Below are positions 8,477 to 23,672 of a DNA stretch of 32,000 bases, piece after piece. The stretch spans positions 1,740,001 to 1,772,000 of the forward strand of contig NC_014148.1 of assembly GCF_000092105.1 (NCBI RefSeq), in the 5' to 3' direction. The position numbers and the translations under genes are program-made. How positions within the stretch are numbered: position 1 is the stretch's first letter; each line of letters starts with the position of its first letter. Under the pieces are notes generated by a model that worked only from the letters and a program-made list of their open reading frames with translations, did no database searches and was not told the DNA's origin. This DNA comes from Planctopirus limnophila DSM 3776 (GTDB taxonomy: Bacteria > Planctomycetota > Planctomycetia > Planctomycetales > Planctomycetaceae).

Positions 8477-10783
8477 ATGCAGTCCAGTGCCCAGCAACCA
8501 TCGTTGTTTACGCCAGAAGACCTTCCTGAGGTTTCGACCCCCTGGGAGATCGTGGACAGTGAAGATCAACTCTACGCTGAAGTGGTTTTCAACCTGCCCA
8601 TGCTCAAGTCCTACCACTATCTTGTCCCTTCGGGGCTCAGAGACAACATACGCCCCGGTTCGAGAGTGCGAGTTCCTTTTGGGACTGGCCAGAAGTTGAC
8701 TCAAGGGTACTGTGTCTCTTTAACAAGGACTCGACCTGCACATCGAAACTTTAAATCGATCGAATCCTTACTTGATGTCGCTCCACTGGTCGATGCCGCC
8801 ATGTTGCGACTGACGAGATGGATCAGTGAAGAGTACTTGTGCAGTTGGGGTCAGGTGCTCGATTCGGTAATCCCGGCGGGAGTGAAATCGAAAGCCGGGA
8901 CTCGTGAACTTTTGCACTTCGAACTTGCCGAAGGCTATGAAACTCGACTGACAACTCTCAAATTGTCGGCCACTCAGCAGCGAATTGTCGATGTCCTGAG
9001 ATCAACAACGGAGCCGATGGCCGGAGATGAATTGACCTCTCTGGCGGAATGTGGGCTCTCGCCTCTGCAAACCCTGCGGAACAAAGGGATTGTCGTTTCC
9101 ACCAAAATTCGCACCTGGTCAAAGTCGGTTTCCAGCGCAGGAGAGAACGATACTTCGGCCATTCTCCTGAATCGAAATCAACACTCGGCTGTCACCAGGG
9201 TCATCGAGTCGCTGGCATCAGGGAAGTCGGAAACTTTTCTACTCTACGGCGTCACTGGCAGTGGCAAGACAGAAGTCTATATCCGCGTGATTGAAGAAGT
9301 TGTGAGGTACGGTCGGCAGGCCATTGTGCTGGTGCCGGAAATCAGTCTCACTCCGCAGACAATCCGGCGTTTTCGTAAGCGATTTGCTTCGGTCGCTGTA
9401 TTGCATTCTCATTTGAGTGATGCCGAGCGGCATAGCTATTGGCAGCAGATCGCACGAGGCCAGGTGCAGGTGATTGTCGGGGCCAGAAGTGCGATTTTTG
9501 CACCGGCTCCGAACCTGGGTCTGGTGGTGATCGATGAAGAGCATGAAACGAGTTTCAAGCAGGATTCGACGCCTCGGTATCATGCTCGGGAGGTTGCCAG
9601 GCAACGAGTGCGCGATGCCGGGATACCACTGATTCTTGGTTCTGCCACACCGACTCTCGAAACCTGGCTTCGCGGGATTCGAAAAGAAGAGATCGTGCTT
9701 TCTCTGCCTTATCGAGTGGCTCAAAGGCCATTGCCACCTGTGATGATTGTCGATACCCGCAACGATCAGTCACTTCAGAAAGGAGCTTCTCTGGGGCGAG
9801 CCATGCTCGTGGCGATGCGAGAATCGTTAGCAAAGAAGGGGCAGATTATTCTGTTTCTGAATGTTCGGGGTTATTCGCCAGCACTCTTTTGCCGGGCCTG
9901 CGGGCAGAGCGTGAGGTGTCCGGATTGTGATGTCACACTCACATATCATAAACAGCGGCAAATTGCTCTGTGCCATAGCTGCGAGTATTCCATCGATCCA
10001 CCGACCAGTTGCCCGAATTGTGGAAAGCCCGGCCTGTTATTTCTCGGGCAGGGGACCGAGCGGTTGGAACACGAAGTGAAGGCTCGATTCCCCGGTGTCA
10101 GCGTGTTGCGCATGGATAGTGATACCATGCAGCAAAAAGGGAGCCACGATCGGGCTTTGGAATCTTTCCGGCAGGGTGAGGTGCGGATTCTGCTGGGAAC
10201 GCAGATGATTGCCAAAGGTCTGGATTTCCCCAACGTGACACTCGTGGGCGTGATTGATGCCGATACGTCTCTACATCAACCGGATTTTCGAGCATCTGAA
10301 CGAACTTTTCAGTTGATTGCTCAAGTCGCAGGGAGGACCGGTCGCGGTGAGCTGGGCGGCAAAGTGCTGGTGCAGACAGCGTGCCCGGATCAGCCAGCGA
10401 TCCTGTATGCCGCCCGGCATGATTATGCCGCCTTTGCACGGCAAGAACTTGAGCACAGGCATACTTTGGGATACCCGCCGTTTGTCCGCATCTTGCGGAT
10501 CATTCTTCGCGGTGAGATCGAAGCCGATGTGGAAAAAGCCGCCGAAAGAATTCGCTTGGGAATGGAATCGAAGGGGTTGGAAAGGGGTGGCATGCTGGCA
10601 AAGATCCTCGGCCCGGCACCTTGCCCAGTGGCCAGACTCAAGAAGTATTTTCGCTACCAGTTGCAGATTTCTCATCCTTCAGGAGAGGTTTTAGGTCAAT
10701 TGTGGAGAGACGTTGAACCCGTCGCGCCTGAACTCGTGCCCGTGGAAATCTCTGTCGATCTTGACCCGATCAGCTTTCGCTGA
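8477..10783 (+). CDS. priA: Primosomal protein N' (replication restart helicase PriA)
   Basis: It has Walker A (LLYGVTGSGKTEVYI) and the DEEH box (VVIDEEHETSFKQ). It has the Cys-rich zinc region (CRACGQSVRCPDCDVTLTYHKQRQIALCHSCEY...CPNCG) and the GRTGRG motif. The track ORF begins at TTG 8435, and I prefer ATG 8477 (MQSSAQQPSLF...). Confidence 0.9.
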   Translation: MQSSAQQPSLFTPEDLPEVSTPWEIVDSEDQLYAEVVFNLPMLKSYHYLVPSGLRDNIRPGSRVRVPFGTGQKLTQGYCVSLTRTRPAHRNFKSIESLLDVAPLVDAAMLRLTRWISEEYLCSWGQVLDSVIPAGVKSKAGTRELLHFELAEGYETRLTTLKLSATQQRIVDVLRSTTEPMAGDELTSLAECGLSPLQTLRNKGIVVSTKIRTWSKSVSSAGENDTSAILLNRNQHSAVTRVIESLASGKSETFLLYGVTGSGKTEVYIRVIEEVVRYGRQAIVLVPEISLTPQTIRRFRKRFASVAVLHSHLSDAERHSYWQQIARGQVQVIVGARSAIFAPAPNLGLVVIDEEHETSFKQDSTPRYHAREVARQRVRDAGIPLILGSATPTLETWLRGIRKEEIVLSLPYRVAQRPLPPVMIVDTRNDQSLQKGASLGRAMLVAMRESLAKKGQIILFLNVRGYSPALFCRACGQSVRCPDCDVTLTYHKQRQIALCHSCEYSIDPPTSCPNCGKPGLLFLGQGTERLEHEVKARFPGVSVLRMDSDTMQQKGSHDRALESFRQGEVRILLGTQMIAKGLDFPNVTLVGVIDADTSLHQPDFRASERTFQLIAQVAGRTGRGELGGKVLVQTACPDQPAILYAARHDYAAFARQELEHRHTLGYPPFVRILRIILRGEIEADVEKAAERIRLGMESKGLERGGMLAKILGPAPCPVARLKKYFRYQLQISHPSGEVLGQLWRDVEPVAPELVPVEISVDLDPISFR

Positions 10784-10854
10784 ATCAATTCCCAAGCCTT
10801 CGAAAAGCTGGGCCTCACGGCCGATTGTCGGGGTGTATCAATGAAGAACGGCAT

Positions 10855-11199
10855 TTACCGCTCGACACAAATCTGGTTGCAGATATGTCGGTCGGTCACC
10901 AATTGTTGTGTCATTGATGAGACAAGTTGCTTGGCATGATAGGACGGGCAAACACCGGTCAATATGACGCGATCATCCGACCAGCAGAGTTCGAGGTGAT
11001 GTACCAATCCTCTTAAACGATTGCGGAGAATCTCTGCCGTATCGTCTTCTTCCAATTTGTTGGCAGGGTCGATCATTTCAAAGACCGGCATGCTGGAAGA
11101 ACCAGGGTTGACCACAGCAGTCCCATCATTATCAGCCTCACGTGGCTCGTGTGGCCATGCCGTTGTGATCACCGCAAACTTCGCTGGTTGAGAAATCAT
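10855..11199 (-). CDS. BON-domain-like small protein (hypothetical)
   Basis: The C-terminal ~60 aa (LELCWSDDRVILTGVCPSYHAKQLVSSMTQQLVTDRHICNQICV) follow the BON pattern of a hydrophobic strand, xLxGxV, helix, then V.N.I.V. I prefer ATG 11199, preceded by AGGGA, over the track start at 11253. The assignment rests on pattern resemblance only. Confidence 0.5.
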   Translation of the reverse strand: MISQPAKFAVITTAWPHEPREADNDGTAVVNPGSSSMPVFEMIDPANKLEEDDTAEILRNRLRGLVHHLELCWSDDRVILTGVCPSYHAKQLVSSMTQQLVTDRHICNQICVER

Positions 11200-11702
11200 G
11201 GTGCCATCCCTGCTGGTGAATTCTTGAGCCACCCATGTCAAAACGACGGGCATTGAGAATGATTGTTGTACAAGACAATGACAATCATGCAGCCTTCCTT
11301 GACTGAATTCATTTGCTCTAAAAGCTACCCCTCGCGATTCAATCCGTCAAAGAAATTTTGTATGAATCCTGGGTTTGTAATTCTCTGCATATGTGCTGGG
11401 GAAATCTGGTTGGGTCGATATTCATTCTGTACTGGAAAATGGCTGTTTTCATGCTGTTTCTCTAGCAGGAAGTAACTTTTTCTGAAGCATCCATCCTGCG
11501 TGGAGAGACAACTTTCATCGCTTCATATAAGCTGTCGAAGAATGTCAGCCATGTAAATTCTCACGAATTGGAATCTCCCGGGTGATTTCTGGGGTGAAAG
11601 CCTCTTCTTGAGTGCCGGCCAATGTCTGTTATTGACTGCAACAGGTTGTGTGAACACCTCCCCTCGGTTTTATCCTGAGAGTCTTAAAAACACTAAAGGT
11701 TC

Positions 11703-12773
11703 ATGCTCATGCCTCTCTCTGAATTGGATCGCAAGTTTCTCGATGATCTCCTGGCGGCTCCCAGTCCCTCAGGATATGAGCAACCGATTCAGGATGTTGT
11801 CCGGGCTTATGCAGCCGGGTTTGCAGAGACTGTCACCACAGATCGACATGGGAATGTGATGGCCTGTGTGAATCCTCAAGGACAGGTGCGCATCATGCTG
11901 GCTGGCCATTGCGACCAGATTGGCCTGATTGTCAAAAACATCGACGAAAAAGGGTTTATCTGGGTGCAGACGATTGGTGGTTGGGATCCCATGGTCCTGC
12001 TGGGACAGCGCGTGCAGGTTTGGACACGCAGCGGACCGATTCCAGGGATTATGGCTCGCAAGCCGATTCATCTGCAGTCGCCGGAAGATCGCAAAGCTGT
12101 TCCCGAAATCAAGAATTTGTGGGTCGATATTGGCGCTCTGAATGGAGAAGAAGCCAGGGCGGCCGTGCGAGTTGGCGATGTCATTACCTGTGAACTTCAT
12201 CAGCAAACCATGCGAAACGGCTTTGTCAGCGGTGTGGCCATGGATGATAAGGTCGGAGTCTGGACTGTATTTACGGCGGCCCGCCGGGCGGCACTTCAAT
12301 CGCCAAAGGCGGCGATTTATGCAGTCTCCACCGTACAGGAAGAAATTGGTCTGCGCGGTGTGCAGACGAGTGCCGCCGCCATCCGTCCACAGATCGGTCT
12401 GGTGACTGATGTGACCCATGCCACCGATTGTCCGACGATTGATGAGAATCAGCATGGTCGCATCAAGCTGGGGCAGGGTCCGGTCGTTTATCGCGGGCCG
12501 AATACTAATCCTCGGGTCTTCGACCTGATTGAAGAAGAAGCTGCGAAGCACGGGATCCCTTATCAGCTGGCTTCATTAGGCACACCAGCCAGTAACGATG
12601 CGGCTCAACTCCAGTTGGCGGGCGATGGAGTGGCCATGGGATTGATCTGCATTCCCAATCGATACATGCACAGCCCAGTGGAAATGGTCTCGCTGGAGGA
12701 TCTGGATCACGCGGCCAATCTGATGGCCGCGTTTTGCGTGCGGATTCAGGATGATACGAATCTCATCCCGTAA
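11703..12773 (+). CDS. M42-family metallo-aminopeptidase (glutamyl aminopeptidase / FrvX-YsdC-like)
   Basis: This 356-aa ORF has PSPSGYEQPI, IMLAGHCDQIGLIV, GVAMDDKVGV, VQEEIGLRG, and CIPNRYMHSPVEMVSLEDL at the C-terminus. Together these are the typical M42 metal-ligand blocks. Confidence 0.85.
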   Translation: MLMPLSELDRKFLDDLLAAPSPSGYEQPIQDVVRAYAAGFAETVTTDRHGNVMACVNPQGQVRIMLAGHCDQIGLIVKNIDEKGFIWVQTIGGWDPMVLLGQRVQVWTRSGPIPGIMARKPIHLQSPEDRKAVPEIKNLWVDIGALNGEEARAAVRVGDVITCELHQQTMRNGFVSGVAMDDKVGVWTVFTAARRAALQSPKAAIYAVSTVQEEIGLRGVQTSAAAIRPQIGLVTDVTHATDCPTIDENQHGRIKLGQGPVVYRGPNTNPRVFDLIEEEAAKHGIPYQLASLGTPASNDAAQLQLAGDGVAMGLICIPNRYMHSPVEMVSLEDLDHAANLMAAFCVRIQDDTNLIP

Positions 12774-12868
12774 GCCTTCCACCAAAGGAATGCTGCCGCC
12801 AAAGATGTCGCAGCGAAGTTTCACTACAGCCAGAAACAGATGGCGTGATCCGCAGGGAATGAATCGTT

Positions 12869-15800
12869 ATGTCAACTCCCCGCTACACACCTCAACAAAC
12901 GCGGGCCTTGACTGAGAAATCGGTCTCGATCGCTCTTTCGGCAGGTGCTGGTTGTGGCAAAACCTTTGTGCTGACGAGAAGATTTCTCGGGTATTTAAAG
13001 CCGGGGCCTGAGCAATACCCGCTGACATCGCTGGTGGCCATCACCTTTACCGATAAAGCCGCTCGCGAGATGCGGGATCGGGTACGGGCCACTTGTCTGC
13101 AGCGTGTGCGAGAATGTCCACCCGAAGAAGCTGACCACTGGTTGAGTCTGCTGCGGGATCTGGATCGAGCACGCATCAGTACGATCCACTCCTTTTGCGG
13201 AAATATCCTGCGTTCGCATGCGATCGCGAGTGGTCTCGATCCCGAATTCACCACCCTCGAAGCGAGTGTGGCCGATTCGCTCCTGAGGCAATCGATTGAA
13301 GCCTCAGCCACGCGATTGCTGGTCAACGATCAACCTGCATTTCGGCTGCTGGCCGTCGATTATGGTATTGAGAAACTACTCGAATCGTCAGGAATTCTCG
13401 TTCGACAACGGCAACTGATCTCTCTAGCAGACTTTGCCGAAATGACAGCCGAAGAGTTGGCAGGGATCTGGCATCGTTGGCTGAAAGAGACCGGCTGGCC
13501 AGCGTTTGTGCGGCAGATCGAGCACCAGCGGACGTTTGTCAGGCTCAGTGAATTCATCTCTCGAACATCAGCCAATTCTCCCAAGCTTGACGAGAAGCTG
13601 AAGATACTTCGACAGATCATGGAGCAATTGAAGAGTCAGCAAGACTCTCCAGAGCCGGGGCGTCTGGCAGAATTGTTTGCGGAGTTATCGCTTCAGGCGC
13701 GAGTGGTGGGGGTGAAGCCTGATCATTGGGGATCTCCTGATGATCACGAACTGGCTAAGGAGTTGTTTACGCAGGTTCGTGACGATTGCAAAAAGTTGAT
13801 TGAAACCATTCAACTCGCTCAAACGGAGTTTGTCCCATACGCCGAGAAGAGCCTGGCATGGCTCTCAGTCGCAGGTGAGTCAATCAGAGATTACGAATTA
13901 ATCAAGAAGTCGCGAGCATGTGTTGACTTTGATGATCTGCTGGTTTTGAGCCGGGATTTGCTACGGAACGATCTGACGGTGCGTCAGGCGTTGTCGCGCT
14001 CCATTCGTGTGCTGATGGTGGATGAATTTCAGGATACGGACCCCGTTCAGGCCGATCTGGTCGAGATGATCTGCGGGAAGGAATTGACGACAGGGAAGTT
14101 GTTCCTGGTGGGTGACCAGAAGCAAAGCATCTATCGCTTTCGAGGTGCTGATCCTCTGGTGTTCAGATCGTTAAAAAGCAAAATTCCAGCGGCTGGTCAA
14201 CTCCCACTCACCATCAACTTTCGCAGTCAGCCCCCGATTCTGCACTTCGTAAACATTCTGTTTCGGCGGGTGATGGGAGCAGACTATGAGGCTTTGGAAC
14301 CCTCTTTCGCGGATGAGAAACCTGAACTTGAGCGGATTGAGTTTCTGTGGGCAACCACGGATGTCGTTGAGAACAAGGCGGTTCAGGGAAGTATCCCGAG
14401 CACAGTTCCCCTGGCGCAAGGATTGGCCGATGAACAGGCCCGGGATGCTGCTGATGCGGAAAGTCAGGATGTTGAAAACATCGATGATGATTCCCGCTCT
14501 GATTCCGGTGAGAAGCAGACTGCTCCTTTTCTGAGACGGCGTGAAGCGGATTGGATTGCCCGTCGTATTCTCGAGTTGCTGGCCGATCCAACACCGCGAA
14601 TTCGGGAGAAAAGTGGCCCGTGGCGAACCATCGTTCCTGGCGACATTACGATTTTGTTCCGGGCGTTGACGAACCTGGAGGTTTACGAACAGGCGTTAGA
14701 AGCGGCGGGAATCGACTATTATGTGGCGGGTGGCCGAGCGTTCTTTGCCCAGCAGGAAATCTATGATCTGGCCCACTTGTGTCAGTTTCTGGATGACCCT
14801 GAGGATGGGTTCAGTCTCGTGGGCCTGTTACGCTCGCCATTTTTCTGTTTCAGCGATCCACTGATTCATCGACTGGCTTCACGTGCGGGTGGTATCACCC
14901 AGTCGCTGTTTGCTGAAGCTTCGGTAGTCAGCGGTCTGTCGCCGGAAGAGACTGCACAGGTTCAGTTTGCAGCCCAGACTCTCGGTTCACTCGTGGAGCA
15001 GCGGGATCACTGGCCATTGGCGAGAATCATTCGCCGAGCCCTGGAATTGACGGGCTATGAGGCCATTGTCTCTCAGGAGTTTCTCGGTTCGCGGAAACTG
15101 GCGAATGTTCATAAAGCGATTGAACTGGCCCGACAGTTTGACCTGGCGGGTGGTAGTCGTGCGGCGTTTGTGACTCAGCTGCGGGAATCGATCGATCAGG
15201 AATCTCGCGAGGAGTTAGCCGCCACACATCCCGAATCGAGCAGTGTGGTGCGTTTGATGTCGATCCACCAATCCAAGGGACTTGAGTTTCCAGTCGTCTT
15301 TGTGGCCGATATGAATCGACCGCGAAAGACTGAATCGCTCCCACCGACGCTTCATCCGCAGTTAGGGGCTTTGGTGACACCTTCGAACCCCCTGGGTGAA
15401 CGACAAAAACATCCTGTGGGCCAATTCATTGAGATCATGGAAGAGGCTGCCAGCCTCGAAGAGTATCAGCGTCTGCTGTATGTCGCTGCCACACGAGCCC
15501 GGGATCTGTTGATCCTGTCTGCCGGGATCAAAGGTTTTGATGAAGGAAAGTTTTCGCCGTGGATGCTGGTCTTGAAGCAAGTCTTTCATCTCGAGACAGG
15601 TCTCTTGCGGAATGATCCCTGGTTTGCGAGCGGACATGAGGATGTGAAAACCCCGCAGGAGATTCCGCTCATTCGTACTCATCATCAGCCACCGCAATTC
15701 ATCGACCACAGAGTTCAGCGACAGGGTGTTCACAAGCTGTCATTTCCACAGGTCTGGAATGAACTAGAACTGGCCGAATCTTTGCCCTGGCCTCAACTCG

Positions 15801-16549
15801 TGGCGGATGTTCAGCGGGGTGCGGAAGGTCGCAGGCGATTGAGTGTTTCGCGACTGGAGGAGTTTCAGGAACAAAGTTCATCGAAATTGAAGAGTCTCGT
15901 TCCAGCAGGTGAATTGGAAGCACATTCGGCGAGTCTCAGTCGCAGCGATGCGGAACTGTTGGGAGAAATGATTCATGGCGTACTGGAGCGATTTGAACCT
16001 CGCGCCGCAGAGGAGTCCGAAAAGGCTTTGCTCCATCGACTGTGGCTGTGGTGCCAGAGACAGCCTGCACCACCTGGAGGCCAGATTCTGGAGCAGGCAC
16101 AGCAATGGCTCAAGACGTTTGCATCGACCGAGCTGATTGATGAACTGGCCATGGCCAGTGAACTGAATCGAGAACTGGAGTTCAGTCTCGATTGGAAAAT
16201 GACTGGAGAAGAGCCGAAACGAGAAACAGAGATCTATGGTCTGATCGATGTCCTGATGAAGGATTCTCAGGATGATTGGATCATTCTCGATTACAAGACG
16301 AGTCGCCTTGCGGCTGGAGTAACTGATGAACTGCTGCTCCAGCCGTATCGATTGCAATTGGGAACATATGCCCTCGCCGTGCAGCGGCTTTTTGGTCGCC
16401 TTCCCAAAAAAGCCGAACTGATTTTTATGCGTCCCAAGCCCCGCCGAGTGGTCTGGAACATGGAGCAGGTGCAAGTTTCCGATCTGGAACAACTTGTGAC
16501 CGAGGCAATCCATCAGTTGGATGCGGCACAGGCTTCGAGCTCATTCTGA
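12869..16549 (+). CDS. UvrD/Rep-superfamily helicase with C-terminal RecB-type PD-(D/E)xK nuclease (AddA/RecB-like)
   Basis: This 1226-aa ORF has SF1 motifs I (SAGAGCGKTF), Ia (ITFTDKAAREM), TIHSFC, II (MVDEFQDTDPVQ), III (LVGDQKQSIYRFRGA), IV (INFRS), V (SIHQSKGLEFPVVF) and VI (LLYVAATRARDLLIL). The nuclease motifs are GLIDVLMKDSQDDWIILDYKTSR and YRLQLGTYALAV. Confidence 0.85.
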   Translation: MSTPRYTPQQTRALTEKSVSIALSAGAGCGKTFVLTRRFLGYLKPGPEQYPLTSLVAITFTDKAAREMRDRVRATCLQRVRECPPEEADHWLSLLRDLDRARISTIHSFCGNILRSHAIASGLDPEFTTLEASVADSLLRQSIEASATRLLVNDQPAFRLLAVDYGIEKLLESSGILVRQRQLISLADFAEMTAEELAGIWHRWLKETGWPAFVRQIEHQRTFVRLSEFISRTSANSPKLDEKLKILRQIMEQLKSQQDSPEPGRLAELFAELSLQARVVGVKPDHWGSPDDHELAKELFTQVRDDCKKLIETIQLAQTEFVPYAEKSLAWLSVAGESIRDYELIKKSRACVDFDDLLVLSRDLLRNDLTVRQALSRSIRVLMVDEFQDTDPVQADLVEMICGKELTTGKLFLVGDQKQSIYRFRGADPLVFRSLKSKIPAAGQLPLTINFRSQPPILHFVNILFRRVMGADYEALEPSFADEKPELERIEFLWATTDVVENKAVQGSIPSTVPLAQGLADEQARDAADAESQDVENIDDDSRSDSGEKQTAPFLRRREADWIARRILELLADPTPRIREKSGPWRTIVPGDITILFRALTNLEVYEQALEAAGIDYYVAGGRAFFAQQEIYDLAHLCQFLDDPEDGFSLVGLLRSPFFCFSDPLIHRLASRAGGITQSLFAEASVVSGLSPEETAQVQFAAQTLGSLVEQRDHWPLARIIRRALELTGYEAIVSQEFLGSRKLANVHKAIELARQFDLAGGSRAAFVTQLRESIDQESREELAATHPESSSVVRLMSIHQSKGLEFPVVFVADMNRPRKTESLPPTLHPQLGALVTPSNPLGERQKHPVGQFIEIMEEAASLEEYQRLLYVAATRARDLLILSAGIKGFDEGKFSPWMLVLKQVFHLETGLLRNDPWFASGHEDVKTPQEIPLIRTHHQPPQFIDHRVQRQGVHKLSFPQVWNELELAESLPWPQLVADVQRGAEGRRRLSVSRLEEFQEQSSSKLKSLVPAGELEAHSASLSRSDAELLGEMIHGVLERFEPRAAEESEKALLHRLWLWCQRQPAPPGGQILEQAQQWLKTFASTELIDELAMASELNRELEFSLDWKMTGEEPKRETEIYGLIDVLMKDSQDDWIILDYKTSRLAAGVTDELLLQPYRLQLGTYALAVQRLFGRLPKKAELIFMRPKPRRVVWNMEQVQVSDLEQLVTEAIHQLDAAQASSSF

Positions 16550-16772
16550 GAATTGATTGAACCTGAAGTTTATTTGGCCATCTGATCCAAAGTACCTTGC
16601 GATGGTCGCTCAGCATTTTGACGCGATTCTCCAGAATCACACCTTCGATCGTGTTATGGCTGAACGTCTTTCGGAATATGCCGTTCAAAATTGGAGGACA
16701 GACGTTGCTTTGTAGACCACAAAGGTGATCGTGCCATTCGAATGAGGTTTGTGAAGGGCGAAGGTTAGCCTT

Positions 16773-16826
16773 GATCCCCCGGCGGGTGTTCACCACGGTC
16801 GAAACTGGGATCTCAACCGGGGGATC
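16773..16826. repeat. Perfect 10-bp GC-rich inverted repeat with a 34-nt spacer
   Basis: GATCCCCCGG (16773-16782) and CCGGGGGATC (16817-16826) lie in the convergent spacer between the addA-like gene and the lipoprotein gene. No U-tract follows on either strand. Confidence 0.6.
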
Positions 16827-16834
16827 CTTCTGCG

Positions 16835-17254
16835 TCAATTAGTGCCACCCGTCGCGATTTGTGTGAGCGTGTTGTTGCGTTGTGTTTCATTCTCAATTTT
16901 CTTGGCCACTGCAGTCGCTTCAGATGTCTTGCCATGTTTGGCTAATACCAGGCTGCAGATTGCACAGGTGTTGTCGCGAGCTGTCCCAGTATCAACCGCC
17001 GCAATTGCATTGAGCACGACTTCTCCATCGCCGGCCTGAGCGGCGTTTTCTGCCAACTTTACGAGGGTGTTATGCTTGGCAGTGCCATCTTTCATGGCTA
17101 GCGCAGCTTCCAATCGGCCCGAAAGTTCGGTCGTCCCAGCGACAGGTGCTGGTTCCTGACGGACACAGCCGGTAAAGAGAACTAACAGCAACAAGATTCT
17201 TGAAATGTTTCTCAAGCAGAATTCCTTTGTGTCAAATGAGTTATCGTTAGTCAT
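16835..17254 (-). CDS. Hypothetical lipoprotein
   Basis: It has a signal peptide with a lipobox (ISRILLLLVLFTG|C). The mature part has three loosely repeated units ending in xNT(L/C)xx(L/I)A: AKHNTLVKLA, ARDNTCAICSLVLA and QRNNTLTQIA. The track ORF starts at TTG 17281, and I prefer ATG 17254 with GGAG just upstream. Confidence 0.6.
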   Translation of the reverse strand: MTNDNSFDTKEFCLRNISRILLLLVLFTGCVRQEPAPVAGTTELSGRLEAALAMKDGTAKHNTLVKLAENAAQAGDGEVVLNAIAAVDTGTARDNTCAICSLVLAKHGKTSEATAVAKKIENETQRNNTLTQIATGGTN

Positions 17255-17652
17255 GGACTCCGGGATGGCGATGGCTTTCAACCAATGGCCTTATACGAGG
17301 GTCCACTTCAAGAATTCGTTGTGGAAAATGCGATGTATCGCTCTTTATGCCGCGATTTTCTTGTGAAGTGAGAAAGCGTTGATAAACAGACTTGGGTTAT
17401 GAATCGATGCACGTTACTGAATGACATTGAGCCAAACCAGTCGCTAATGCCAGAAATAGCTGAAACAACCAGTGTTTCACCTATTGTGACTGAAACGCTC
17501 CCAAAACCAGAGGACATGCGGCCTCAAGCGAAGTGCAGCTCAAGAGTAGATCGGATTCTCTGCGAAAATGGTGCACCTCCCGACTTTTGCCAACGGTTAA
17601 GAGTTCGCGTTTTCAAAGGGTGGTCAAGTTATATTGGCAGGCCTTGAACTTC

Positions 17653-17683
17653 TCATGATGTCTACCAAAGTCAGACATCATGA
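17653..17683. repeat. Perfect 11-bp stem with a 9-nt loop
   Basis: TCATGATGTCT (17653-17663) and AGACATCATGA (17673-17683) are exact reverse complements. The hairpin sits inside the gene-less region upstream of htrA. Confidence 0.6.
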
Positions 17684-18279
17684 CTTCAACCTGAATTCCG
17701 TTTGAGAGACCTTTCATGTCACTAGCTTGGAGTGGTGTCTTGTCGTCGTTCTTCACGGCGACCCGGCATCAGTTGGCTGTACCACCCATCAGGTTTGCGA
17801 GTGATGAGTTTGGGAAGGGGTGAGAGTTTGGCGCTTTCTTCCTGGCGATGTGGATCTCGCTTGTTTCTCTTGAGAAGGGAAGAAAACTTCCAGAGGTATT
17901 GCATTCGTTGTGATCAGAATCCCTTGCCGAGATTCCGCAACAGTCACAACACATGAAGTCCCATCAACAAAAGTGCCTCTGCGACACCTTAGTTGACACA
18001 CATCCTGATTCATGTGGCACGGTTGACTACAGAAGAGGTCTTTGTGCAATGAGATTTTTTTCGTGTGAATCTGTTCTGATCAGGTAAGATTTGACGGATC
18101 GGATGACTCTCCGGCACATCGAAGGTCGCAACTAGAATCTCCGCAGGTGATGCAACCCGCAAAGTATGGCTTTGTCTGCGATCTTTGAGATGTTCCGCCG
18201 AAGAGACATACGAGCGACTTCTGCCTGGTCTCCTCCCAGCGTCGCCCAATGTCAGGGCCGTTTCTTCAGAAAGCCTGAA

Positions 18280-19767
18280 ATGTCGAAACTGACAAAATGG
18301 ACAGTTCCCGCCAGCATGTTTTTTCTGGGTTGCCTGGCTGGCGGCGGGCTGCTCTCGATTCCTGTCATGAATGCCGTCCGTGCATCCGCCGTCGATAAAG
18401 CGGCTCTAGAAGAAGCCTACGAAGATCTCAACAAGAAAGTGACCGCCCTACAGGAAGGAAGTTCCCTGCTGGCGCGAGTGGCTCATCTAGCGACTCCCAG
18501 CGTGGTGCATATCGAGAGTCGGCGGAATGTCCCGAATAAAGGTGTCGTGGAAGAAACCGGATCGGGAGTCCTCGTCAGCGGCAGCGATGGCAAAGGGATT
18601 TATGTCGTTACCAACCGGCATGTGATTGATGGGGCGATTCCAGGCAACATCTCGATTTCGCTCTTTGACGGCCGCGTGATCAATCCCGATGACATTCGTG
18701 CAGATCGCGACACAGATTTAGCCGTTCTGCGAGTCAATGCTCCCAACCTCTCACCTGCCCGCTGGGCTGATTCTGATAAAGTCGATATTGGTCATATGGT
18801 GCTGGCAGTCGGCAGTCCGTTTGGCCTCAGTCAGTCAGTAACCTTTGGAATCATCAGTGCCAAAGGTCGTCGCAAGCTTAAGCTTGGTACGACGGCTGTT
18901 TTGAATCAGGACTTTTTGCAGACCGATGCCGCCATCAACCCCGGGAACAGTGGCGGCCCTTTAATTGATCTGCAGGGACGCATCATTGGCATCAATACCG
19001 CCATTGCCAGCAGCAGCGGCGGAAACGAAGGAATCGGCTTCAGCATTCCCAGCAATCTTGTCCGCCGGGTGATGGATCAGCTCCTTGAGTTTGGCGTGGT
19101 GCAACGGGCTTACCTCGGTGTGCGGCTGGATCCCGCCTTCGATCTGCGATCTGCCAACCGGCTGAAGCTCGACCGTGTGGGCGGGGCGCGCGTTACCGAA
19201 GTTTATCCTAATACTGCTGCTTCCAAAGCCAACCTGCTCTACGATGATGTGATTCTCAGTTTTGATGGAGTCGATGTTGAAGATGAGAACCATCTGATCA
19301 ATCTGGTCAGTCTGACGCCGTTCGGCAAAAAAGTGCGGATGGTGGTCTGGCGCGGAGGGAATAAGGTGCCTGTCCTGGTACAACTGGGTGATCGTGCGGA
19401 GATGCGGGAACAGAGTGCCGTGCCAACTCCCGACATGGGTCTTCCGCCCGTTCGAACGACGAGTCTCACGCCTGGATTGAAATTGAAGCCACTCGATTTT
19501 CAAGTGCGGGAGACGCACCGGCTGCCAGCTCGTGCCGGTGGCATCCTGGTCAACGAGGTCGCGATCGACAGTGTCTGGCAAGGGATTGTCGAAGTGGGCG
19601 ACCTGATTGTCGAAGTGGATCAGTGGCCGGTCGCTTCCGAAAGCGAGTTAGCCAGTGTGTTGAAGGCAGGCCAGGCATTGCCGGCCATACCGATCAGGTT
19701 GATGCGACTTGAAGGTGGAAAATCGGTCGAGCATGTCGTGCAACTGCCGCAATCGAAACTGCAATAA
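18280..19767 (+). CDS. htrA: HtrA/DegP-family periplasmic serine endoprotease with two PDZ-like regions
   Basis: The catalytic triad contexts are present: TNRHVIDG (His), DTDLAVLRV (Asp) and GNSGGPLIDLQGRIIGINTA (Ser). An N-terminal signal/anchor (MSKLTKWTVPASMFFLGCLAGGGLL) starts at ATG 18280. The track ORF starts upstream at 18166. Confidence 0.9.
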   Translation: MSKLTKWTVPASMFFLGCLAGGGLLSIPVMNAVRASAVDKAALEEAYEDLNKKVTALQEGSSLLARVAHLATPSVVHIESRRNVPNKGVVEETGSGVLVSGSDGKGIYVVTNRHVIDGAIPGNISISLFDGRVINPDDIRADRDTDLAVLRVNAPNLSPARWADSDKVDIGHMVLAVGSPFGLSQSVTFGIISAKGRRKLKLGTTAVLNQDFLQTDAAINPGNSGGPLIDLQGRIIGINTAIASSSGGNEGIGFSIPSNLVRRVMDQLLEFGVVQRAYLGVRLDPAFDLRSANRLKLDRVGGARVTEVYPNTAASKANLLYDDVILSFDGVDVEDENHLINLVSLTPFGKKVRMVVWRGGNKVPVLVQLGDRAEMREQSAVPTPDMGLPPVRTTSLTPGLKLKPLDFQVRETHRLPARAGGILVNEVAIDSVWQGIVEVGDLIVEVDQWPVASESELASVLKAGQALPAIPIRLMRLEGGKSVEHVVQLPQSKLQ

Positions 19768-19782
19768 GCCCATGCCTTCCAG

Positions 19783-20313
19783 GTGCACGGGTTGGGAAGG
19801 GAGAGATCATTGGCGTCAAACGATCACTGGCGTATCGAAGTCGCCGCCTCTCAATCGCCGTGGACTCATCCCCATTGGGTTGAATGGATCAAGTGGGTAG
19901 TAGCCTCATATGCTCAATGGACGGGACAATCCCTTTCCGATGCAGGCCCGGAAGAATTTCCCAGAGTGCTGTTCCATGCCCCGTTTGTGCTGGTTTCGCA
20001 TGGAAAGGAAGCTGACCCAGTCCTGTGCTACGGCAATCAGACAGCTCTGAAACTGTGGGAAATGAGCCTCTCTCAGTTTCTCGAAACACCTTCACGATAT
20101 ACGGCCGAACCGATGCATCGTGATGAACGGGCACAACTCCTCGAACGCACGACCAGGTACGGATTTGTCGACGATTACCAGGGAATCCGCATCTCTGCGT
20201 CGGGCACTCGATTTCGCATCCACCAGGCGACGGTCTGGAATGTGATCGACGCAGAGGGAACCTATCAGGGACAGGCCGCCATGTTCCACGAATGGACACC
20301 AATTGGTTCGTAA
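19783..20313 (+). CDS. MEKHLA-domain (PAS-like) protein
   Basis: The sequence FHAPFVLVSHGKEADPVLCYGNQTALKLWEMSLSQFLETPSRYTAEP...RAQLLERTTRYGFVDDYQGIRISASGTRFRIHQATVWNVIDAEGTYQGQAAMF matches my memory of stand-alone bacterial MEKHLA proteins. The start is uncertain. It is either GTG 19783 or, perhaps better, TTG 19810, which is preceded by GGGAGAG. Confidence 0.65.
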   Translation: MHGLGRERSLASNDHWRIEVAASQSPWTHPHWVEWIKWVVASYAQWTGQSLSDAGPEEFPRVLFHAPFVLVSHGKEADPVLCYGNQTALKLWEMSLSQFLETPSRYTAEPMHRDERAQLLERTTRYGFVDDYQGIRISASGTRFRIHQATVWNVIDAEGTYQGQAAMFHEWTPIGS

Positions 20314-20349
20314 GCGTCAGTTGGTGTGTAACTGTTGTCGTCAAACCGC

Positions 20350-21438
20350 TCAGGCACTCAGCACTTTGCGGACGTTGGCTTCCGTAACCGGCTGAATAAT
20401 GCCCTTTTCCGTGATGATCGCCGTAATGAGTTCCGCCGGTGCGAAATCGAATGCCGGGTTGTAAACATTGGCACCTGTGGGGGCGAGCTGGACACCCCCA
20501 GGATGAGTAATCTCAGTGGAGACTCTTTCTTCGATGGGAATTGATTTCCCTTCGAGAAGCGTCAGGTCGAATGTGGAGGATGGAGCTGAGACATAAAACG
20601 GAATTTTGTGGTAATGACATAACACCGCCACGCTGTATGTCCCAATTTTATTGGCGGCATCGCCACGGGCGGTGATGCGATCAGCCCCGACAATGGCGGC
20701 GCCAATCCGGCCTTCCTTCATGACCTGCCCGGCCATGGAATCTGTAATGAGAGTACAGGGGATTCCTCTTTGCATGAGTTCCCACATGGTCAGTCGGGCC
20801 CCCTGAAGCAAAGGGCGGGTTTCATCAGCATAAACATGAATCTGCTTGCCAGCGGCATGCGCATGAGCCAGAGCGGCGAACGCTGTTCCATCACCGGCTG
20901 TGGCTAATCCACCTGTATTGCAGTGTGTCAGAATCCCGCTGTTGGCAGGCAGCAGCGAGGCTCCGAATTCTCCCAGTCTGGCACACATGGCGCGGTCTTC
21001 AGTTTCAATGGCCTGTGCCTCAACTAACAATCTTTTCTGAAGATCGGCAGCACTCATTTGTGGGTGATCTTTGGCAACTTGCTCCATGCGCTGGATGGCC
21101 CAGAAGAGATTGACAGCCGTGGGCCGACTTTCGGCCAGGTATCTGGCCACCTTGGCCAATTGTTGATCGAACTCTCCTCGCGAGACATCTGCCCCTGGCT
21201 GAAAGAGTGGTTGCAGGCCGACGACTATTCCATAGGCCGCCGCCACACCAATCGCAGGAGCGCCGCGAACTTTGAGCTGCTTGATCGCCTCCCAGATGTG
21301 TTCCACGGTGTTCCCATCGATATGCTTTAACTGCGTGGGCAATACCGTCTGGTCGATCAGCTTCAGTGATCCGGTCAGTTCGTCCGCTTGCCACTCCAGA
21401 GCACGATAACTGGGCAACGACACAGGATTGGACACCAT
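20350..21438 (-). CDS. mtnA: S-methyl-5-thioribose-1-phosphate isomerase (methionine salvage)
   Basis: There is strong block similarity to MtnA: KVRGAPAIGVAAAYG, SRPTAVNLFWA, ILTHCNTGGLATAG, ADETRPLLQGARLTMWELMQRGIPCTLITDSMAG, IVGADRITARGDAANKIGTY, IPIEER and NPAFDFAPAELITAIITEKG. I prefer ATG 21438 (MVSNPVSL...) over the track start at 21483. Confidence 0.85.
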   Translation of the reverse strand: MVSNPVSLPSYRALEWQADELTGSLKLIDQTVLPTQLKHIDGNTVEHIWEAIKQLKVRGAPAIGVAAAYGIVVGLQPLFQPGADVSRGEFDQQLAKVARYLAESRPTAVNLFWAIQRMEQVAKDHPQMSAADLQKRLLVEAQAIETEDRAMCARLGEFGASLLPANSGILTHCNTGGLATAGDGTAFAALAHAHAAGKQIHVYADETRPLLQGARLTMWELMQRGIPCTLITDSMAGQVMKEGRIGAAIVGADRITARGDAANKIGTYSVAVLCHYHKIPFYVSAPSSTFDLTLLEGKSIPIEERVSTEITHPGGVQLAPTGANVYNPAFDFAPAELITAIITEKGIIQPVTEANVRKVLSA

Positions 21439-21693
21439 GGGGAATTCTCTTTGGCTTGGCAGAACATTCAGGAAGATTCTCAAGAGTTGGTACGCTAACC
21501 GAAATGACTAAGACGTACCAACGAAGGCCACTTTCCCAGCGGTTTGAAGTTCAAAGTCGCCGATTTCAATCGTGGTCGTTCGGGACGAGACAAACTTTTT
21601 CGGAAAGAGGTGAACCCGAACCCGACAGTTGATAACATGCAAATCTGTTCATGGAACATGAAATTGGGATGTTTTGACCTCTGGAGTCTGGCC

Positions 21694-22584
21694 ATGCGAG
21701 TGATCTGCAAGAGTTTTCTGGTGCTGGCGTTGGGTTGGTTGAGCCTGTTCGCGGGACAGGAAGGATCTTTACAGGCAGCTGATGCACCTGCCAAGAAGTA
21801 CAAAGCCCTCATGCTGACTCAAAGTGCAGGATTTACGCATGGCTCGGTACGTCGCCCGAAAGCTGAAGGCGATGCACCGCAGAAGCTGAGTGCGTCAGAA
21901 ATCGCGATGACACAACTCGGCCAGCAGACCGGTCTGTTTGATGTGACCTGTACGCAGGATGCCGCCAGCGATTTCACGAAAGAGAACCTGTCCAAGTACG
22001 ACATGGTGATTTTCTACACGACTGGCAATCTGCCCATTGCCGATGCCGATAAAGAATACTTTCTCAATGACTGGCTAAAGCAGGAAGGTCATGCCTTCAT
22101 CGGGTTCCATTCCGCGACAGATACGTTCAACAACTACAAACCCTATTTTGATTTTGTAGGTGGTACGTTTGATGGACATCCCTGGGGAGCAGGCGAGACA
22201 GTCACCATCAAGATTCACGATCCTGAGTTTCCCGCGATGAAGCCACTGGGGAGCGAACTGGTCGTCAAGGACGAAATCTATCAGTACAAAAATTATCGGC
22301 CTGAAAACGTCCGAGTATTGATGAGCCTCGATATGTCCAAGTGCAAAACCAAGCGTCCTTACATGGTGCCGGTCTCGTGGGTAAAAGAACATGGCAAGGG
22401 GCGATTGTTCTACACCAATCTGGGCCATAATGAAGGCACCTGGACCAACCCCACTTTCCTGGAGCATGCTCATCAGGGAATTCGTTGGGCCTTGCGGCTC
22501 GAAGAAGGAAATGCCACGCCGAATCCTGAGCTTCAGGCCAAACTTCAGGAAGAGGCCAAGGCAGCCGCAGAGCCTGCCAAGTGA
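21694..22584 (+). CDS. Secreted ThuA-domain protein (trehalose-utilisation-like, class-I glutamine-amidotransferase-like fold)
   Basis: A signal peptide (MRVICKSFLVLALGWLSLFAGQ) begins at ATG 21694, with GGAG 7 nt upstream. ThuA-type blocks are present: YDMVIFYTTG, GHAFIGFHSATDTF, FDFVGGTFDGHP, PVSWVKEHGKGRLFYTNLGH and GIRWAL. The track ORF starts at 21544. Confidence 0.8.
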   Translation: MRVICKSFLVLALGWLSLFAGQEGSLQAADAPAKKYKALMLTQSAGFTHGSVRRPKAEGDAPQKLSASEIAMTQLGQQTGLFDVTCTQDAASDFTKENLSKYDMVIFYTTGNLPIADADKEYFLNDWLKQEGHAFIGFHSATDTFNNYKPYFDFVGGTFDGHPWGAGETVTIKIHDPEFPAMKPLGSELVVKDEIYQYKNYRPENVRVLMSLDMSKCKTKRPYMVPVSWVKEHGKGRLFYTNLGHNEGTWTNPTFLEHAHQGIRWALRLEEGNATPNPELQAKLQEEAKAAAEPAK

Positions 22585-23499: not shown

Positions 23500-23672
23500 T
23501 CTTGATACTCAATTAATAAGTTCTGGATAATCGAAAAGAACTTTCTCACGAACATCCTGCCAATGAACACTGTCAGCTACAATTGAGGCGCGGCAGATTT
23601 GTCGGGAATTGCTGCAAGATGGCCTATGGCCGCTCCTGAGTTTTCGTCATTGACTGGATTTCGCTTTTTAAC

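Follow-up and report, generated by a model that had tools for sequence, protein, structure and literature searches.

Why does the gene map of Planctopirus limnophila DSM 3776 have a hole of about 1 kb directly upstream of htrA? The hole lies in a stretch of 32,000 nt (contig NC_014148.1, positions 1,740,001 to 1,772,000; hereafter the window, whose own numbering we use), where 1025 nt (17255–18279) separate the divergent ATGs of a probable lipoprotein gene, Plim_1378 (16835–17254, minus strand), and of the protease gene htrA/degP, Plim_1379 (from 18280, plus strand). An initial annotation made from the sequence alone had found no credible gene in this gap and proposed a long structured 5′ leader or regulatory region for htrA, an unrecognised non-coding RNA (ncRNA), or the decayed remnant of an acquired gene. 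We find that the gap is probably ordinary non-coding DNA in which sequences of two different origins meet at 17892/17893, and that a conserved stretch adjoining htrA is probably its control region.

That no gene has been called in the gap agrees with existing records. By exact protein look-up, Plim_1378 and Plim_1379 carry successive GenBank locus tags, and therefore no GenBank gene is annotated between them. The equivalent stretch of P. ephydatiae, from Spb1_20760 to the adjoining degP, likewise has no annotated gene. The literature search yielded neither a paper on Plim_1378 or Plim_1379 nor a map of transcription starts in P. limnophila. The gap is the longest spacer of the window; the runners-up have about 450–570 nt, so that the initial figure of about 500 nt for spacers elsewhere was roughly right. 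The open reading frames (ORFs) in it are, as had been noted, only short and mutually overlapping (53–86 aa), the expected yield of unselected sequence. At 48.4%, its G+C content (GC) is below the 52.9% of the window and in the lowest 3% for its length, as 32 of 1239 equal-sized windows have the same or a lower value; this is in line with the impression by eye of an AT-rich segment. Comparison with relatives divides the gap into three parts: 17255–17892, 17893–18124, and 18125–18279.

The relatives compared were P. hydrillae JC280 (L002) and a contig of a Planctopirus-like metagenome-assembled genome (L001), both from an htrA search with one genome per species. Others were added by protein identity: P. 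ephydatiae (L024/L045), the metagenome strains L032 (near P. limnophila) and L033 (near P. ephydatiae), and L034, a metagenome contig of the P. hydrillae type and the only one that a leader pattern retrieved from metagenomes. In P. hydrillae and L034, about 165 nt separate the end of addA (window 16555) from sequence that matches the window from 18057 on. Because this spacer of about 165 nt is collinear with 17893–18056, the two genome types differ by a segment of 1337 nt (16556–17892; GC of 49.1%), whose limits were taken from BLAST breakpoints and junction alignment. P. limnophila, P. ephydatiae, L032, and L033 carry the segment, while P. hydrillae and L034 lack it; the whole region in the three other carriers is 95–97% identical to that of P. 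limnophila. Thus, close relatives share one site, flanked by conserved addA and htrA, at which some have the segment and others do not. The same genes adjacent in related genomes with an unconserved spacer, which the initial annotation had named as an outcome that would count against it, is largely what P. hydrillae and L034 have.

The segment begins immediately after the addA stop codon. Its left edge carries GAGAATTG (16548–16555), which overlaps that stop codon, and its right junction carries GAGGTATTG (17893–17901), together an imperfect direct repeat of 8–9 nt, while the empty site in P. hydrillae and L034 has one GAGGATTG only. The repeat pair is equally compatible with a target-site duplication and with a deletion between microhomologies. 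Terminal inverted repeats that appeared by eye (CTGAAGTTT and CTGGAAGTTT) were rejected, as the best end-to-end local alignment scores 8 compared with 6.6 ± 1.3 in shuffles (p = 0.2). No second copy of the segment occurs within the window or in 45 fetched loci. The segment contains no integrase domain, transposase domain, or tRNA according to six-frame Pfam searches and ARAGORN, and searches for tandem and dispersed repeats gave nothing above chance. Schlesneria, the nearest outgroup at hand, has no addA–htrA adjacency; no outgroup keeps this adjacency, so that gain and loss of the segment fit equally well.

The sole demonstrable gene of the segment is Plim_1378, which encodes a probable lipoprotein of 139 aa with a signal peptide, an LFTGC lipobox, and a conserved CxxC, and is listed in GenBank as a hypothetical protein. 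Its confident AlphaFold model (predicted local distance difference test score of 84) is all-helical and TPR-like, and no PDB entry matches it significantly. In metagenomes, 39 homologues with 55–99% identity were found, and the mature domain, including CxxC, is well conserved among the 31 that were aligned. Homologues with 55–83% identity to Plim_1378 are placed in unrelated contexts, such as next to an rve-family transposase gene (L035), within an island that also encodes a phage-type (tyrosine) integrase and a Y1 transposase (L037–L040), with DUF4926 (L042 and L043), with DUF6804/DUF4279 genes, or in unrelated settings (L036, L041, and L044). When ten homologue loci with 70–78% nucleotide identity in the aligned part of the gene were compared with the window by blastn and tblastx, nothing outside the lipoprotein coding sequence matched.

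Plim_1378 is also somewhat atypical in its codons, as TTA, CTA, ATA, AGA, and GTA make up 7 of its 139 codons (5%, compared with 2% in the window genes). The differing contexts of its homologues, the low GC, and the atypical codons together indicate an accessory gene that moves. The segment, with its deviant GC (49.1% vs. 52.9%), rare codons, and patchily distributed cargo, accordingly looks like acquired DNA. More generally, small TPR-like CxxC lipoproteins of this kind are an uncharacterised mobile family of freshwater Planctomycetes. Just downstream of the Plim_1378 stop codon, a G+C-rich hairpin (16773–16826) with a 10-bp outer stem (GATCCCCCGG/CCGGGGGATC) folds at −32.1 kcal/mol (z of −2.64) and is probably the terminator of the gene. 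P. ephydatiae has a 5-nt deletion (16805–16809) in an inner stem of the hairpin as predicted for P. limnophila.

The non-coding part of the segment (17255–17892, 638 nt) makes up the larger share of the gap and shows no homologue, domain, RNA family, or repeat. It presumably holds the promoter of the lipoprotein gene along with co-acquired DNA without detectable function.

The rest of the gap behaves as the original addA–htrA spacer, and its outer part (17893–18124), when aligned with P. hydrillae, L034, and L001, evolves fast. Identity to the window is 48–50% at 17893–18056 (P. hydrillae and L034), 58% at 17954–18056 (L001), and 78–85% at 18057–18124 (all three). Low as it is, the homology of 17893–18056 to the spacers of P. 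hydrillae and L034 is significant (z of 5.5–7.7, reached by 0 of 1000 shuffles), whereas control segments of the gap give z of 0.5 or less.

Two further observations concern this outer spacer. The segment-free genomes have a terminator-like hairpin, ACGAAAAAGTCTTCGTTTTTGG, directly after addA (L002 5614–5645 and L034 5432–5463), of which the window retains, at about 17903–17917, no more than the 3′ half in degenerate form. Separately, the L001 contig ends within the variable spacer, with its position 1 corresponding to window 17954. Over the first 103 nt of the contig, identity is 58% with the window and 41% with P. hydrillae, so that the L001 spacer looks like a third, deeply diverged version, and the assembly break at the spacer suggests strain heterogeneity there.

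The inner part of the spacer is different in kind. In the htrA-proximal block (18125–18279, about 155 nt, plus strand), only 12 of 156 alignment columns vary among five Planctopirus lineages, and the near-invariance runs on into the first 60 nt of the htrA coding sequence. The block and its L034 counterpart differ at 4 of 155 positions, while other spacers differ by 12–14%. Conservation of this degree directly upstream of htrA is what a cis-regulatory region would be expected to show, and from position and conservation we infer that the block comprises the htrA promoter, an operator, and the 5′ untranslated leader. Its fold stability is ordinary (z of +0.53), no covarying or compensatory pairs were found in it, and an nhmmer search did not find the block upstream of Schlesneria htrA.

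The proposal of a leader or regulatory region for htrA therefore holds up for these 155 nt or so. It fails for the other 870 nt or so of the gap, which are not a conserved htrA leader because they are missing from P. hydrillae or only about 50% identical there.

The block is bounded by the start codon of htrA, and several automatic calls place that start upstream at 18166, giving a protein of 533 aa instead of 495 aa. The extension (18166–18279) is unlikely to be translated, as a 1-nt insertion in L001 breaks the frame and GTG replaces ATG. Its codon score (introduced below) is −0.246, and 4 of its 7 substitutions fall at second codon positions. The evidence thus favours the start at 18280. 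The 495-aa product of Plim_1379 (18280–19767) has a trypsin-like domain and two PDZ domains and is annotated as a peptidase of the S1/S6 type.

Hidden genes in the gap were sought by codon statistics, homology, and substitution patterns. Log-likelihoods per codon were trained on 16 clear genes of the window, and shadow ORFs of 50–120 aa lying inside genes were used for comparison. Real genes score 0.11–0.32, shadow ORFs have a mean of −0.14 (standard deviation of 0.12, maximum of 0.09), and the gap ORFs range from −0.34 to +0.05. The gap ORFs thus have non-coding codon statistics within the shadow-ORF range. The 82-aa ORF that the initial annotation had singled out for its rare codons (17399–17647, plus strand) is indeed rich in TTA, CTA, ATA, AGA, and GTA (7 of 82, or 8.5%, vs. 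2.0% in the window genes), and is judged non-coding, with a score of −0.095 and a GC at third codon positions of 0.42. A 60-aa ORF on the minus strand (17722–17904) has a borderline score of 0.051.

In an exhaustive HMMER search over 1.84 billion representatives, the 82-aa ORF returned only itself, predicted as a gene on a single Logan contig, and, weakly, two repeat proteins. These matches involve about 20 residues repeated 6–8 times, which inflates the E-values. One of them, with a repeated 'QDGAPPHYTLRVRD' unit, had given a mariner-like hint, which we regard as an artefact because both proteins are internally repetitive. Pfam at E ≤ 10 gave no match in six frames of 17230–18200 or in three frames of 16550–16840, and no Pfam transposase matched the gap in any frame. 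Pseudogene remnants, for which the initial annotation had suggested a tblastx search, did not appear when the gap was compared in this way with related loci and with the rest of the window. Distant blastn against plasmid and phage collections and two exact-pattern scans of viral contigs also gave no match. A chimeric query of the six frames joined by X found nothing in a set of 5.8 billion proteins; as even known self-hits were missed, this search was treated as uninformative.

Variation among the four carriers tells the same story. Across 17200–18300 there are 38 variable sites, and synonymous changes are not in excess in any open frame; the ratio of synonymous to non-synonymous substitutions is 6/7 in the 82-aa frame and 0/5 in the 60-aa frame. 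Between GAGTTTG direct repeats, an 18-nt indel (17806–17823), present in P. limnophila and L032 and not in P. ephydatiae and L033, makes the difference between 35 and 59 aa in a small plus-strand ORF, and the 59-aa version is called only in P. ephydatiae-type contigs. Neither the homologues, codon usage, and synonymous excess of a protein gene nor, in any frame, the residual similarity to a protein family that marks a pseudogene is found in the gap. Outside the gap, at the left end of the segment, an orphan ORF of 52 aa (16557–16715, plus strand) has a gene-like codon score of 0.144. It has no homologue beyond a fragment of itself from the same strain, and may represent either the C-terminal remains of a truncated donor gene or a small orphan protein.

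Known RNAs were not found either. The Rfam scan that the initial annotation had recommended, run with Rfam 15 at the gathering threshold, gave no match in the entire window. At E ≤ 10, 16500–18800 returned only bxd_5 at chance level (13 bits vs. a threshold of 50; E of 6.7). ARAGORN found no tRNA or tmRNA gene. These negative results uphold the earlier statement that hallmarks of tmRNA, RNase P, signal recognition particle RNA, and tRNA are lacking. No sigma-70-like promoter was found in 16300–18500, though Planctomycete promoters may differ.

Local folding was scanned in windows of 120 nt on both strands (about 100 windows), and for each of the two outliers the test was repeated with 200 shuffles. 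The most stable local fold, two hairpins that depend on G–U pairs, lies at 17880–17999 on the minus strand, mostly in the original spacer, and reaches −43.6 kcal/mol (z of −4.47, with 0 of 200 shuffles as good). The other stretch, 17600–17800 on the plus strand, folds at −70.1 kcal/mol (z of −3.62) and includes at 17653–17683 an 11-bp hairpin plus two weak inner pairs. The remaining windows have z of about −2.6 to +2.3. Sequences orthologous to 17880–17999 show no unusual fold on the minus strand (z of −1.7 in P. hydrillae, −1.3 in L034, and +0.9 in L001). Among the four carriers, the fold at 17600–17800 has 0 compensatory changes; three pairs are kept by wobble and six are broken in at least one strain, a count biased in favour of the structure in that it was derived from the window sequence itself. 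Covariation is a weak test here, the carriers being 97–99% identical.

Between P. limnophila and P. ephydatiae, the block 16550–18330 is 97–99% identical and addA and htrA are 92–93% identical; at third codon positions of flanking genes, 15–22% differ. Strong nucleotide constraint on this block or its recent transfer was considered, and was dropped for the non-coding part after a control for the rate of spacers. When promoter-bearing spacers in 20 kb of P. ephydatiae were used for this control, divergence was 3.1% (11200–11708), 3.2% (12774–12868), 3.1% (21439–21693), and 0.6% (23500–23672), compared with 3.2% for 17255–17892. Because the control spacers also diverge by about 3%, the gap is conserved to the same degree as ordinary 5′ spacers of this genome pair, and the conservation of 17255–17892 says nothing special on function.

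Spacers and synonymous sites do not keep the same time in this group. Third codon positions (window 11126–22495) place P. limnophila, P. ephydatiae, and L034 at about equal distances from one another, while 63–82% of the changes in four intergenic regions fall on the L034 branch. At similar coding divergence, spacers differ by about 3% between P. limnophila and P. ephydatiae and by 12–14% from L034. The mismatch may come from saturation at a subset of third positions or from recombination.

Only one other zone of the window, 10526–11700, has GC as low as the gap (47–49%). It contains a minus-strand ORF of 132 aa without a Pfam match, which is called at 114 aa in P. ephydatiae, and a spacer of 449–509 nt before an M42 peptidase gene. 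Aligned with P. ephydatiae, the stretch between priA and the 132-aa ORF shows 25% mismatches and 64 columns with gaps.

We propose the following course of events for the addA–htrA junction. The lineage of P. limnophila and P. ephydatiae would have gained the segment 16556–17892 directly behind the stop codon of addA, and with it the lipoprotein gene, the terminator hairpin of that gene, and presumably also its promoter. The rest of the segment would have come along as functionless or decayed donor DNA. The remaining 387 nt (17893–18279) would be the original addA–htrA spacer, whose outer part drifts fast, while its last 155 nt or so are held near-invariant and would carry the htrA promoter, regulator-binding sites, and the 5′ untranslated leader.

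Other explanations of the gap have to be weighed against this course. If the stable folds reflect an ncRNA specific to the lineage, transcribed from about 17600–18000 on either strand, it could be a small RNA (sRNA) or could, as an antisense or upstream transcript, modulate htrA or the lipoprotein gene. Intergenic regions between divergent genes are common sites of sRNA genes, and the gap is such a region; both folds beat dinucleotide shuffles, and the G–U pairs restrict the one at 17880–17999 to a single strand. However, one or two outliers are less surprising among about 100 windows, the minus-strand fold is missing in the spacers of P. hydrillae, L034, and L001, and the plus-strand fold has broken pairs and no compensatory change. 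With, in addition, no Rfam family even at E ≤ 10, divergence no lower than in other spacers, and no site resembling a sigma-70 promoter (with the above reservation on Planctomycete promoters), we consider such an RNA unlikely. The initial suggestion of an unrecognised ncRNA is thus left with two favourable folding energies and is not upheld.

The candidate of a decayed acquired gene divides differently. That 17255–17892 was acquired is supported by the presence–absence polymorphism, low GC, atypical codons, and mobile cargo, but no trace of a decayed gene is found in any frame. Such a remnant would be that of, for example, a partner or mobility gene that arrived with the lipoprotein gene and is now eroded beyond recognition. 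Only 420 of the 1337 nt of the segment are demonstrably coding, which is unusually little, its composition looks foreign, and lipoprotein homologues elsewhere adjoin integrase or transposase genes. The 6 synonymous changes to 7 non-synonymous in the 82-aa ORF are also slightly above the chance expectation of about 25–30% synonymous, though not significantly. Against such a remnant, which we rate as rather improbable, stand the absence of any Pfam family in any frame, of any protein match among the 1.84 billion representatives other than repetitive proteins with inflated E-values, of matches in the lipoprotein-homologue loci or the phage and plasmid collections, and of terminal inverted repeats. 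It is very unlikely that the 82-aa or the 60-aa ORF is instead a real orphan gene for a small protein. Both are intact in all four carriers, which is trivial at 97–99% identity, the 60-aa ORF is borderline in codon score, and one gene caller predicted the 82-aa ORF on a Logan contig. Yet their scores lie in the shadow-ORF range, the 82-aa ORF has its 8.5% of rare codons and low third-position GC, and all 5 substitutions in the 60-aa ORF are non-synonymous. Moreover, the 18-nt indel shifts another ORF from 35 to 59 aa, homologues are lacking, and neither GenBank record annotates a gene in the gap.

Some observations count against the reading of the gap as ordinary DNA of two origins. A deletion between short repeats in the P. 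hydrillae lineage fits the junctions as well as a gain does. The third codon positions of Plim_1378 differ from those of P. ephydatiae (L045) at only 3 of 140 (2.1%), compared with 10–20% in eleven neighbouring genes, 3 of the 4 substitutions in the gene being at such positions; recent exchange between lineages or constraint on the mRNA is possible. The chimeric six-frame protein search was probably insensitive. The folds at 17880–17999 (minus strand) and 17600–17800 (plus strand) do beat shuffled sequence, and an RNA specific to the lineage would leave no further trace in sequences so similar. A regulatory role at the RNA level is conceivable in two forms, though we give little credence to either. 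The stably folding stretches at 17600–18000 could encode a young lineage-specific regulatory RNA that came in with the segment. Alternatively, 18125–18279 with the first 60 coding bases could be a new Planctopirus-specific regulator of this envelope-stress protease acting at the RNA level, for instance a leader that binds sRNA or responds to temperature or stress.

Overall, the initial interpretation is partly supported, and the reading of the gap as non-coding DNA of two origins explains the 1-kb hole in the P. limnophila gene map, where no gene or known RNA has been missed. The addA–htrA junction is a variable site in Planctopirus, and 18125–18279 is now delimited as a sensible target for promoter and leader studies in a genetically tractable Planctomycete. 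Beyond annotation, the significance is small.

Several known systems resemble the locus in part. The segment has the size of an insertion sequence or a miniature inverted-repeat transposable element (1.3 kb), and the imperfect repeats of 8–9 nt at its ends resemble a target-site duplication. Unlike such elements, however, it has no terminal inverted repeats (p = 0.2), no trace of a transposase, and no second copy in the window or the fetched loci, and it carries an unrelated lipoprotein gene. An ordinary intergenic region with divergent promoters is a closer likeness, as the gap lies between divergent genes, diverges at the usual rate of 5′ spacers, and is conserved on the htrA side. It differs from such a region in being about twice as long as any other spacer of the window, and two thirds of it are missing from a sister species.

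In other bacteria, htrA/degP has promoters dependent on sigma-E and CpxR, and a short htrA RNA thermometer is present in enterobacteria. The 5′ region of Planctopirus htrA is comparable in that the conserved block abuts the gene and reaches into its first codons. It differs in that 18125–18279 has no similarity to Rfam thermometers or leaders, an ordinary fold stability (z of +0.53), and no recognisable sigma-70-like promoter, and in that the block is not conserved in Schlesneria.

The remaining comparison is with genomic islets that carry an orphan accessory gene. The segment departs from a typical islet in having no integrase, transposase, tRNA target, or inverted repeat, in being only one third coding, and in that a loss in the P. 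hydrillae lineage would fit its junctions as well as a gain. It agrees with one in that congeners either have or lack it at a single site flanked by conserved addA and htrA, and in its lower GC, atypical codons, patchy cargo that is mobile elsewhere, and direct repeats at the junctions.

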